Of a DNA stretch of 25,935 nucleotides, positions 20,667 through 24,060 are shown one piece after another. The notes below the pieces were generated by a model that made no database searches, had not been told where the DNA came from, and worked only from the letters and a program-made list of their open reading frames with translations. Source of the DNA: a virus (lineage: Duplodnaviria; Heunggongvirae; Uroviricota; Caudoviricetes); the IMG/VR virus record IMGVR_UViG_2636415858_000002, positions 1 through 25,935 of that record. One strand, 5' to 3'. How positions within the stretch are numbered: position 1 is the first letter of the stretch; the number at the start of each line of letters is the position of its first letter. The translations under genes were made by a program, and so were the position numbers.

Positions 20667-20976
20667 TTTAATTTATCGCGAGAAAAACTATGTCTGTAGT
20701 GATATCAGGTGCGCTGACTGATGGCGCAGGTATCCCCATGTCCGGATACCATATTATTCTGAAATCCCGGGTAAACACCCCGGAAGTGGTGATGCACACT
20801 GTTGCTGATGTGATGACAGGAAACGATGGTGAATACTGTTTCCATGCGCGGACTGGAAAATATGGTGTGTATCTGAAACCGGGCTGGCACAACGAGTACA
20901 ACGTTGGCGACATTGCTGTATATGAGGACTCAATGAGGTGTACTGGCAATAGCGGACACTACCATTTGTTCTTTTT

Positions 20977-21795
20977 TTAAGCAGCCATCTGATGATATTT
21001 TTCCCTGAAGGCTGCCGGGGAGATATTCCCCAGACGAGAGTGACGACGCTGACGATTGTAGAAAATCTCAATGTATTCCCGTATTACTGAGATGGCTTCA
21101 TCCCGGTTATTAAAACGATAGTGGCTCAGGCTCTCATTTTTCAGCGTTCCCCAGAAGCTTTCCATCGGAGCGTTGTCGTAACAGTGACCTTTACGCGACA
21201 TTGATGTTTTCAGACCAGACTGCTCCTGTATGACCCGGTAATCGTATGCGCAGTACTGTGAACCTCGATCAGAGTGGTGGATTAGCCCGGCAGGTGGGCG
21301 CTGGCTCCTGAGCGCCATAAACAGGGCTTTACCTGTCAGCTCTTTTGTCATGCGCTCTCCCATGGCGTAGCCGACAATTTCGCACGTATAAACATCTTTG
21401 ATGCCAGCGAGGTACAACCATCCCTCCTGTGTGGCAACATACGTCAGGTCCGCCACCCAGACCTGATTTGGTGCTGTAGGAGCGAACGTCTGGTTCAGCA
21501 GATTTGGCGCAACTGGCAGATTGTGGTTCGGGTTCGTAGTCGCTCTGAACTTGCGTTTCTGCTTACAGCGTAGCCTTAGCTCCTTACGAAGACGTGCCAG
21601 TCGGTCACGACCAACGATGATGCCATTCTCTGCCAGCTCCGTCTGGAGCCGCCGGGTTCCATATGTTTCGCGAGTGCGGATATGTGCCACCTTAATCTCC
21701 AGTTTTAGCCGCTCATCACTTTGTTTTCTGTCTGAGGGTTCATGCTGTACCCAGTTGTAATAACCGCTCCTGGATACACCAAATACCTGACACAT
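20977..21795 (-). CDS. IS600 OrfB
   Basis: 272-aa frame identical to copies 2 and 3. Confidence 0.85.
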   Translation of the reverse strand: MCQVFGVSRSGYYNWVQHEPSDRKQSDERLKLEIKVAHIRTRETYGTRRLQTELAENGIIVGRDRLARLRKELRLRCKQKRKFRATTNPNHNLPVAPNLLNQTFAPTAPNQVWVADLTYVATQEGWLYLAGIKDVYTCEIVGYAMGERMTKELTGKALFMALRSQRPPAGLIHHSDRGSQYCAYDYRVIQEQSGLKTSMSRKGHCYDNAPMESFWGTLKNESLSHYRFNNRDEAISVIREYIEIFYNRQRRHSRLGNISPAAFREKYHQMAA

Positions 21796-21844
21796 CGCTT
21801 CAATGGGAAATTGTTGTCGCCATTGTTCGATTAACGCGTATTTT

Positions 21845-22132
21845 TCAGCGACTCCTGTGCAAAATACGCTGTTGCTTTTTTAATATATCTCGCTCAAGGC
21901 GAGCTTCATTTAACGCCTTACGCAGTTGCAGAATTTCAGATTCCAGTTCAGCCACCGTGCGGGAACCAGGAGTACCGAGCCCTTTTCTGGCGGCGGTAAC
22001 CCATTGTCCTAAAGTGCCTTCAGGAAGGGATAATCGGGAAGCGCCTTCACTGATCGAAAGTTGATTTTCAAGAACCGTTCTGACAGCTTCGGCTTTGAAC
22101 TCTTTAGAGTAACGTTGGTTTTTTCTGCTCAT
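21845..22132 (-). CDS. IS600 OrfA, 95-aa variant
   Basis: Same C-terminal change (KKQQRILHRSR) as copy 1. Confidence 0.8.
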   Translation of the reverse strand: MSRKNQRYSKEFKAEAVRTVLENQLSISEGASRLSLPEGTLGQWVTAARKGLGTPGSRTVAELESEILQLRKALNEARLERDILKKQQRILHRSR

Positions 22133-24060
22133 TATTAGCTCCTTCTGATGCCATTCTATTTCAGGAAGGAGTGTCCGTTAAACTCAGGCTACCTCACAAA
22201 GCCCGGCACGCTGAATGACTTTCTGATTGCTCCTGATGAGGGCGACCTGAAACCGGATGTCGTCAAACGCTTTGAGGAAATGGTGGTGCAGGCGCAGCAG
22301 AGCGCCGGGGCCGCAGCCGGAAACGCACAGCAGACGGCGCAGGATGTGGCGGCAGCCGCAACGGCCCGTGATGATGCACAACGTTTTGCGGAGAATGCCA
22401 GACAGGATGCAACCGTCACAGCTGAGGACAGAAAGGCCACTGCGGAAGATGTGACAAGCACAGGAGCAAATGCAGCCGCAGCCGGACAGAGCGCACAGGA
22501 TGCCGCAGGTTATGCCCGCGCAGCAGAACAGGCCAAAAATGACATTGATGCTGCGCTGACCGGCACTCTGAAAATGGCTAACCATCTGTCAGAAATCGCA
22601 GCAGCAGGCGAAAAGGCACAACAGAAGTCCCGGGATAATCTGGGGCTGAAAAGTGCGGCCACGATGGAAGCACAGAGCGACATTTACGACCGGACAAAAG
22701 GCCGTCTGGCGATACCCGGCGCATTCGGCTTTGGGTGTGCTTTTCTGCCTGAAGATGTTATCCGTTTTGACACTAAGAGTGATTTCCTGGCCTGGGTAAG
22801 GAATGCGCTGCCAGGTGAATATTCCGTTGCTGGCCCCTACGACATCATCATACCCGACACACGGTTTGAAGGGGTGCTCAGCATCCGGTGGACTGATGCA
22901 CGCCCTGAGACAACAGAACCGCGGTACAGAGCCAAATCCCTTACTTTTTACGGCATTAACGGCCCCATTTATCACACCCGCTACTGCTACTGGCCCATAT
23001 CCAGACTGACTGGCTGGGTGAAAATAAATATAACCACAGAAGATATTATTTACAGAATCGTGGCGAGCTCTGTCCGCAACAGATGGGGAGACCCTGACAT
23101 TGGCGGGCTGATTATTGCTGCGTACCAGGGAGAAGCTGACGGTGATAAAGTCATCAGACTTGTCAGGGGGCAGTCATACAGAGGCTCACGACTGGGACCG
23201 GTGGGGATTTCAGTGCCCAGTACTCCCACCGGAACGTATATAGCATCCCCACAATTTTTCATTACGGGATGTTCAGAGCATTCATTACCGGGGTCATATT
23301 GCGCCCTGTCCGGGGGCCGGATGCACATGTCTCTGGCGCAATGCCCGGGCTTTTTATTCGCACATCGTGAGGAATGCACCGTGGAAATTAAAAAAATCAT
23401 TAATCCCCGTTATACCGAAAGTGGCGCAGTAGACTGTGACGTTTTTTTTGACGACAGGGACCAGGCAGTCCCCTACACAGCCACCGCTGATGATGTCGCT
23501 CCGACGGGTCAGCAAATCTGGCAGGAACTGCAAAGCGGCAAATGGGGTGAGATAGCCCCATTCACTGTGACACCAGAAATGCTGGAAGCGGCCAGAGAGG
23601 CCAGACGTCAGGAAATTGAAGCATGGCGCGCAGAACAGGAGGCGAAGCCGTTCACGTTTGAATGGAACGGTCGTATCTGGAATGCTGGTCCCGACTCACT
23701 GGGCCGCCTGTCCCCGGTAGTCATGCTGGCAAAATCTGTCACAGCACAAACACATATGGCGTGGAGCGATGCCGATAATCAGCAGGTGAAACTGTCGATG
23801 CCGGAACTGGAAGAACTGGCGGCAGCAATGGTGCAGGCGCAGGTCGATCGCAACGATGAGATTTATCGCCGTCAGCGTGAAATGAAAGAGGAGCTGAGCG
23901 GTCTGGATGATTTGGCTTCAATTCGGGCGTTTGACGTTGAGTAATGAATAAGCCGCAACTGGCGGAATCACAGAAGACCGCTTTGCTTACCGAAGCGGAG
24001 TCTGTCATCCGGCCGCGGGGGCGTGCTGTCAGGCTGAACAGGGAAACGGATGAATCCGGG

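Follow-up and report, generated by a model that had tools for sequence, protein, structure and literature searches.

This work deals with a stretch of 25,935 nucleotides of viral DNA (IMG/VR record IMGVR_UViG_2636415858_000002, Caudoviricetes), hereafter the window, in which a side tail fibre gene of the phage lambda Stf type (stf) is interrupted by a copy of IS600, an insertion sequence (IS) of the IS3 family. The identity of the element, its duplication of the target triplet CAA, and its insertion into a lambda-Stf-type gene were observed directly, and no evidence contradicting the insertion itself was found. Taking the data as a whole, we hold with high confidence that a single IS600 insertion occurred in the stf gene of an ancestral Shigella boydii prophage, was inherited, and was followed by further decay of the gene, since this prophage was already riddled with IS elements and the loss of stf would have been neutral. 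An initial annotation of the same DNA had described a simple, probably recent insertion, made by a copy with a shortened adenine run (A6), after whose removal the open reading frame (ORF) could be rebuilt. Its coordinates and its identification of the element, with an exact CAA duplication, proved right to the base by direct reading and by script.

The IS600 copy and its insertion site

The element spans positions 20934..22196 (1263 bp) and is inserted with its transposase genes read from the minus strand; position 20934 is its orfB-side end and position 22196 its orfA-side end. Reading across the junctions, which was done directly and checked by script, gives ...GAGGACT-CAA followed by TGAGGTGTACTGG on the left and GGCTACCTCA followed by CAA-AGCCCGG on the right; the longer reading is ...TATGAGGACT CAA / TGAGGTGTACTGGCAATAG ... 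CTCAGGCTACCTCA / CAA AGCCCGGCACG. Both copies of CAA (20931..20933 on the left and 22197..22199 on the right, with no strand) come from this direct reading, and the flank repeat is limited to these 3 bases, as repeats of 1, 2, and 4-11 bases fail to match. A match of 3 bp has by itself a chance of 1/64. The empty sites of relatives hold one CAA, and for this reason the triplet was taken as the true target duplication of a single insertion.

The empty site, GAGGACTCAAAGCCCGG, was found by alignment with its single CAA in Escherichia coli RMDEC465 (L001) and in an O121 strain (L002). When a query of 800 nt built from both flanks was used, it matched RMDEC465 in one piece across the junction with 94.7% identity, and several strains resembling enteroinvasive E. 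coli (EIEC) matched at 96-98%; phage phiP27 also aligned in one piece over the junction, with 87% identity. At the protein level, S. flexneri proteins P0001 and P0122-P0135 read uninterrupted through the site as ...VYEDSKPGTLNDFL.... The proper comparators for the empty site are P0001, L001, and L002. A protein of 471 aa from S. flexneri K-227 (P0142) was considered as the intact allele and rejected, given that its N-terminal domain belongs to a different paralog. The in-silico excision that the initial annotation had proposed as a check was carried out, and the removal of 20934..22196 with one CAA does leave a continuous frame, of 1989 nt and 662 aa, with the junction IAVYEDS/KPGTLNDFL (in full, ...NVGDIAVYEDS/KPGTLNDFLIAP...).

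The assignment to IS600 was supported by several features. Over its full length the stf copy is one base apart from the two 1264-bp copies found elsewhere in the window (7535-8798 and 10078-11341), with 1263/1264 positions matching (99.9%), and it is 99.7-99.9% identical to the RefSeq elements named "IS3-like element IS600 family transposase". The ends are TG...CA (TGAGGT...ACCTCA), and they form an imperfect inverted repeat, complementary at 6/6 terminal bases and at 19 of the first 27. On the minus strand, orfB (20977..21795, 272 aa) carries the DDE/rve catalytic domain (PF00665, PF13276, PF13683, and PF13333), and an altered orfA, called here orfA' (21845..22132, 95 aa), carries HTH_Tnp_1; its exact protein is the database entry IS600 ORF1 of Shigella boydii Sb227. 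Upstream of orfA, in the orfA-side end, there is a promoter-like site, TTAACG-17-TAGAAT (22153..22181, minus strand), which is presumably the own promoter of IS600, by consensus match only. The likeness to the IS600 reference therefore covers full-length nucleotide identity of 99.9%, TG..CA ends, HTH_Tnp_1 in orfA, rve/DDE in orfB, and the 3-bp duplication, as expected of the IS3 family; other IS600 copies have 3-bp duplications of CCA, TTC, CGC, GAC, and ATA. The difference lies in the length, 1263 bp and not 1264, and in the frameshift window, where A AAA AAA G is shortened to A AAA AAG. The IS3-family arrangement in which orfA in frame 0 and orfB in frame -1 are joined by a -1 slip into OrfAB is present in the A7 copies of the window and is lacking in the stf copy, which would best be regarded as a mutated member of the family and not as a non-member. 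Among the Rfam families, none covers the IS600 frameshift region.

Just outside the IS end at the stf site (20918..20933) there is a heptamer, TGAGGAC, resembling the terminal inverted repeat, and a similar one, TGAGGAG, was seen at positions 1491..1500 of locus L015 (E. coli FDAARGOS_944). A target preference for sequences of this kind was considered and not retained; the heptamer was found at only 2/6 IS600 sites, so that coincidence or a weak preference are both possible.

The course of events that we propose is as follows. One IS600 copy would have transposed into codon 81/82 of the lambda-Stf-type side tail fibre gene, duplicating CAA, probably by the copy-out/paste-in route through a circular intermediate that is known for the IS3 family. 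This would have happened in the ancestor of several S. boydii strains, which then inherited the insertion. Stf would be cut inside its N-terminal domain, leaving a stub of 96 aa, with the rest of the gene parted from its start. In a prophage already full of IS elements the loss would have been neutral, and the gene would have kept on decaying: in the lineage of the window a -1 frameshift in a G-run would have fused the stf remnant to the following DUF4376 gene, while sister lineages would have suffered a 241-bp deletion at the same spot. The A6 copy would be left without the canonical route to OrfAB, and any movement of it would depend on other copies.

The stf gene and the lesion in its 3' part

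The 5' fragment of stf (20690..20933, plus strand, codons 1-81) belongs to PF08400 and reads on into the IS, where a stop at 20980 gives the product of 96 aa. The 3' fragment (22200..23370, plus strand) holds codons 82-471 of the ancestral gene, whose stop TGA at 23368-23370 is out of frame owing to a run of five G. In the rebuilt protein, residues 1-131 correspond to PF08400 (Prophage tail fibre N-terminal, E=6.3e-67), and lambda orf-401, the N-terminal part of Stf, is 42% identical over residues 1-121. The parallel with lambda Stf that had been drawn at the insertion point stands with regard to the homology and the motif, VYEDS-PGTLNDFL; however, lambda reads VYEDSQPGTLNDFLC, the last residue being C and not the G given in the initial annotation. 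No significant similarity to lambda Stf was detected by BLASTP past residue 121. By homology, then, this side tail fibre would share with lambda Stf only the attachment domain and not the C-terminal, receptor-binding part.

In the lambda record stf appears as split ORFs of 401 and 314 aa. The split in lambda PaPa is due to a 1-nt frameshift, whose repair gives a Stf of 774 aa, and lambda PaPa lacks a functional Stf. The gene of the window resembles that of lambda PaPa (annotated as orf-401 and orf-314) in that it also bears a frameshift lesion. It differs in size, with 471 aa in its ancestral form while the lambda protein is larger, in that the similarity is confined to the N-terminal ~120 residues, and in what follows it, a DUF4376 gene instead of a Caudo_TAP tfa. 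Its position is that of an Stf-type gene: the uninterrupted L001 has gpJ - lom - fibre - tfa - stf - DUF4376, so that, of the two fibre genes, stf comes second (fibre - tfa - stf - DUF4376), an order shared with phiP27-like prophages. The window is without J and lom, and in it stf is flanked by tfa (PF02413) and DUF4376.

Although the continuous frame predicted after excision was indeed restored, its product is not an intact allele. The uninterrupted relatives encode proteins of 421-471 aa that end in ...CALSG(G/V)PD(A/T)(H/Y)VSGAM(P/L)GLFIRTS, and they have a separate DUF4376 gene next to stf, followed by ipaH on the opposite strand. The rebuilt ORF of 662 aa fails the comparison in its length, in its C-terminus, and in the separate downstream gene, because it runs into DUF4376, whose domain occupies residues 545-650. 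The cause is a G-run of 5 at 23312..23316 (plus strand), a -1 frameshift that joins stf to the DUF4376 frame. The relatives have GGGGGG (L001, L004, and L006) or GGGGTG (L002) where the window has GGGGG. If one G is added at 23312-16, an Stf of 471 aa is obtained with the C-terminus of the family and its stop at 23368-23370; the ancestral end is ...GLFIRTS, and the relatives end in PDAHVSGAMPGLFIRTS and have DUF4376 as a separate gene. That gene (23381..23944, plus strand, 187 aa, PF14301) has a GTG start 12 nt past the ancestral stf stop and lies where a gene for tail-fibre assembly, or an accessory gene, would be expected; its product of 187 aa also exists in S. flexneri (P0140). Among the best 120 of 1445 protein matches to the 662-aa ORF, none covered more than 68% of it, which argues that the fusion is not a natural allele. 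The rebuilt ORF would then be a chimera and not the ancestral stf, and the lesion is not simple as had been described, since the G5 frameshift is a second defect besides IS600.

The points that weigh against this reading concern the G-run itself. G5 was found only in the window and in assembly GCA_002968145.1, which has 0 mismatches with it over 11.2 kb and may share strain or data with the window. All 4 differences from GCA_002968145.1, and 6/7 indel differences from CP026731, are 1-nt differences in the length of G/C-runs, and G5 could be a residual assembly error of the same homopolymer class; for A6 an error by homopolymer contraction is less likely than for G5. If G5, and possibly A6, were long-read homopolymer miscalls, the IS would be the sole lesion, and excision would return an intact 471-aa stf with a separate DUF4376 gene. 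We consider this a serious possibility, although not the favoured one. It draws its support from the fact that the indel differences from two long-read assemblies are of the G/C-run contraction class, with 1-nt contractions accounting for all those between the window and L008 or L004, and that G5 is private to the window and one assembly with zero mismatches. Against it, in those comparisons the run of the window is always the longer and preserves the ORF, so that the window looks the better polished sequence, and A6 is certainly real elsewhere, at 4 loci of the Sb227 chromosome (CP000036) and, as the exact protein, on 122 contigs. The G5 run may well be a real frameshift. A further ORF arises if the IS is left in place: a hybrid of 598 aa (22148..23944, plus strand) begins with an ATG that lies within the IS end and continues in frame into stf-DUF4376. 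With its in-frame ATG in the IS, its length, and its content (the C-terminal part of Stf plus DUF4376), it might be thought to encode an expressed and functional new fusion protein, but we judge this highly improbable: no plus-strand promoter-like site was found in or near the IS end, the product is present on one contig only among ~15 billion proteins, its PF08400 N-terminal domain is without residues 1-81, and in sister strains the stretch is deleted or frameshifted. The hybrid ORF is probably fortuitous.

Spread of the insertion and the state of the A-run

The product of 96 aa, in which 15 residues read from the IS end follow Stf residues 1-81, was used as an exact-match marker of the junction and was found on 28 contigs, under the names "prophage tail fiber N-terminal domain protein" of Shigella boydii and "MULTISPECIES" Shigella. 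Both junctions, with the same CAA duplication, are present in L003-L010, which comprises at least 8 assemblies named S. boydii; one more S. boydii contig (L011) ends inside the IS and shows only the left junction. The carriers have diverged since then. A 241-bp deletion (window 23228..23468), common to L005, L007, L009, and L010, takes away the last part of stf together with the beginning of the DUF4376 gene, and it is an independent further decay of the same pseudogene. A dense tract of single-nucleotide polymorphisms (SNPs) at 19894..20321 (~430 bp) sets the lineage of the window apart from all the others: 42/46 substitutions between the window and L006 fall within it, from the last part of the first tail-fibre gene into the beginning of tfa, and this pattern suggests recombination or gene conversion between tail-fibre paralogs. 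Scattered SNPs also separate the carrier lineages. Considering that the carriers share junctions and duplication and yet have diverged, the insertion is inherited within a S. boydii group and counts as recent when set against the Shigella IS expansion, but not at the level of the strain. Different secondary lesions in each lineage are expected of a gene released from selection.

The slippery run of the stf copy is A6 (21876..21881, read as T6 on the plus strand), while the copies at 7535-8798 and 10078-11341 have A7. The A7 copies read GAT ATA TTA AAA AAA GCA, their OrfA is of 100 aa with the end ...LKKATAYFAQESLKNTR, and orfB is entered by a -1 slip on A AAA AAA. In the stf copy and in that at 1770-2998 the sequence is TTA AAA AAG CAA, and frame 0 gives the 95-aa OrfA', ending in ...LKKQQRILHRSR. 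As predicted from these frames, in the A6 copy a -1 slip on A AAA AAG would give the normal OrfA, with orfB in the +1 frame; because A6 puts orfB in this frame, the canonical -1 slip would not yield OrfAB, whose production would need a +1 or -2 slip or a transcriptional deletion of 1 nt.

The initial annotation had the insertion made by an A6 copy. The A6 run is indeed present here, but the copy may have had either A6 or A7 at the time of insertion, as the orthologous stf copies are mixed, with A7 in L005, L006, L007, L009, and L010 and A6 in the window, L003/L008, and L004. An attempt was made to polarise A6 against A7 by flanking SNPs, and the state of the A-run conflicts with SNP 24780, so that the run has changed more than once, by slippage or gene conversion. 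The use of these orthologs has to be qualified, and this too counts against our reading: the A7 in the draft assemblies L005, L007, L009, and L010 could be repeat-consensus fill, so that the only firm A7 ortholog is that of L006, a complete genome.

With these data it is possible to weigh two other accounts of the insertion. According to a version that follows the initial annotation, a simple and recent insertion, at strain level, was made by an A6 copy and is the sole defect, and excision restores a functional stf. The clean 3-bp duplication and the restored frame agree with it, as does the IS copy, identical to two copies of the window except for the A-run; moreover, A6 copies with their own duplications at other loci indicate that A6 elements do reach new sites. 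Nevertheless, the rebuilt ORF passes the ancestral stop into DUF4376 owing to G5, the insertion is common to at least 8 assemblies that have since diverged, and the orthologous copies of 5 assemblies are A7, and for us this version is unlikely. Far less probable still is a recombination between IS600 copies in two stf paralogs of different ipaH prophages, in place of a single insertion. Such an origin is suggested by the mosaic structure of the stf paralogs in the several ipaH prophages of Shigella genomes (P0004 and P0142 differ in the N-terminus and share the C-terminal part) and by the possible IS600-mediated inversion within the window itself; against it stand the matching intact CAA on both sides and the match of both flanks to one continuous, uninterrupted allele in L001 and L002. 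The single, inherited insertion in the ancestral S. boydii prophage remains our explanation.

The A6 variant was also followed beyond the stf locus. The exact 95-aa OrfA' is on 122 contigs (at least 4 accessions), and the 100-aa form is on at least 1000 contigs. Copies with A6 occupy ~11 distinct loci (window 21876..21881 and 2678..2683, and loci L015-L025), 4 of them in the Sb227 chromosome, and at 6 loci full-length A6 copies have their own 3-bp duplications (CCA, TTC, CGC, GAC, ATA, and CAA). Among complete E. coli genomes, only 6/1333 records with a full-length match have an A6 copy. The exact A6 motif had no match in the GTDB species-representative genomes, which include too few Shigella genomes to be informative. 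A6 is thus a real allele and not a private error, and its enrichment suggests that A6 copies spread in S. boydii by trans-mobilisation or gene conversion. That A6 IS600 is a sub-population that multiplied in S. boydii, even though the canonical -1 slip does not give OrfAB, we put forward only tentatively and with some doubt.

The prophage remnant and the meaning of the insertion

The phiP27/lambdoid-like prophage of the window, from a S. boydii lineage, survives as a heavily degraded remnant with ipaH just downstream, and its 26 kb hold at least 10 IS copies, including IS1, IS2, IS911, an IS66-family element, and three IS600 copies besides that in stf. From left to right, IS911 fragments, two IS1 copies, and one IS600 copy occupy 1..5908, and among IS copies the prophage carries four clustered tRNA genes, for Met(cat), Arg(tct), Thr(tgt), and Gly(tcc) (3480..3790, minus strand). 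They are followed by a repressor-like gene (6728-7135), an inverted IS600 pair around an antirepressor-like ORF with C4 and isrK RNAs (7535-11341), the tape-measure and other tail genes (11704-14734), an IS66-family element with an IS2-like element (14842-18374), the first tail-fibre gene, truncated upstream (18733-20118), tfa (20121-20666, PF02413), and the stf::IS600 locus with the DUF4376 gene (20690-23944). A terminator-like hairpin (24060..24081) separates the tail-fibre module from ipaH (24124..25935, minus strand, open to the end of the window), which encodes an effector of the type III secretion system with E3 ligase function (LRR_TTSS + NEL). The ipaH ORF is frameshifted in GCA_002968145.1 and CP026731, and the EIEC homologue is named ipaHd. 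EIEC RMDEC465 shares the order tail fibre - tfa - stf - DUF4376 - ipaH (opposite strand) and has it intact; the prophage of the window is far more degraded, as it is without the J/lom region and has at least 10 IS copies over its 26 kb. In such a remnant the loss of the side tail fibre would have no plausible cost.

Some observations were made on the other IS600 copies. The copy at 1762..2998 has A6, one SNP, and an internal deletion of 27 bp in its orfB-side end (TGAGGTG joined to GTTCTTTTTTT); its flanking triplets do not match, and its Sb227 ortholog (L021) is shortened by another IS. This first IS600 locus is arranged differently in Sb227 than in the window, and the window was on this ground judged not to be from Sb227. 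The A7 copies at 7535..8798 and 10078..11341 are identical and inverted around 8799..10077, with flanks TAG/GCC and CTA/TGA; an IS-mediated inversion of 8799..10077 is possible, one triplet pair fitting it and the other not. Between these copies two Rfam matches were obtained on the minus strand, C4 antisense RNA (9458..9545, 78.6 bits) and the Hfq-binding RNA isrK (9570..9646, 68.5 bits), both inside a listed ORF of 279 aa (8858..9697) and upstream of the antirepressor-like coding part. Judged from its sequence, the C4/isrK/antirepressor-like stretch would be a P1/P7-type immunity module left in the remnant.

Hawkey et al. 2020 (PMC7373316) report that five IS, IS600 among them, expanded in all Shigella species; they give 229-348 IS for each reference chromosome and at least 199 pseudogenes for each genome. 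The case described here resembles the IS-driven pseudogenisation reported there, with hundreds of insertions per chromosome that are common within lineages and inactivate genes, and it shows no substantive difference from that pattern; it is one more case, in a prophage gene under no selection. Nothing specific came up in a literature search for the IS600 target duplication or for a paper on ipaH prophages with this insertion. Events of this kind are known, as ordinary IS-driven pseudogenisation, and this one is already annotated in databases.

The insertion is, in short, a textbook case of IS-driven decay in a defective Shigella prophage, whose truncated product of 96 aa is already public under its correct name. 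In practice, the stf::IS600 junction with CAA can be used as a clade marker for one S. boydii group. It also calls for caution in annotation, as the in-silico repair of a gene split by an IS can yield a chimeric ORF if there is a second silent lesion downstream. The sole thread of wider interest is the A6 variant at multiple loci, that is, how IS3-family elements with a disabled frameshift window spread. If A6 copies did multiply in S. boydii, this would imply that a non-autonomous IS3-family element is mobilised efficiently in trans, that gene conversion has spread it, or that a different recoding is in use, either a slip of +1 or -2 or transcriptional slippage by 1 nt to A5; and copies that make only OrfA could act as dampers of IS600 activity.

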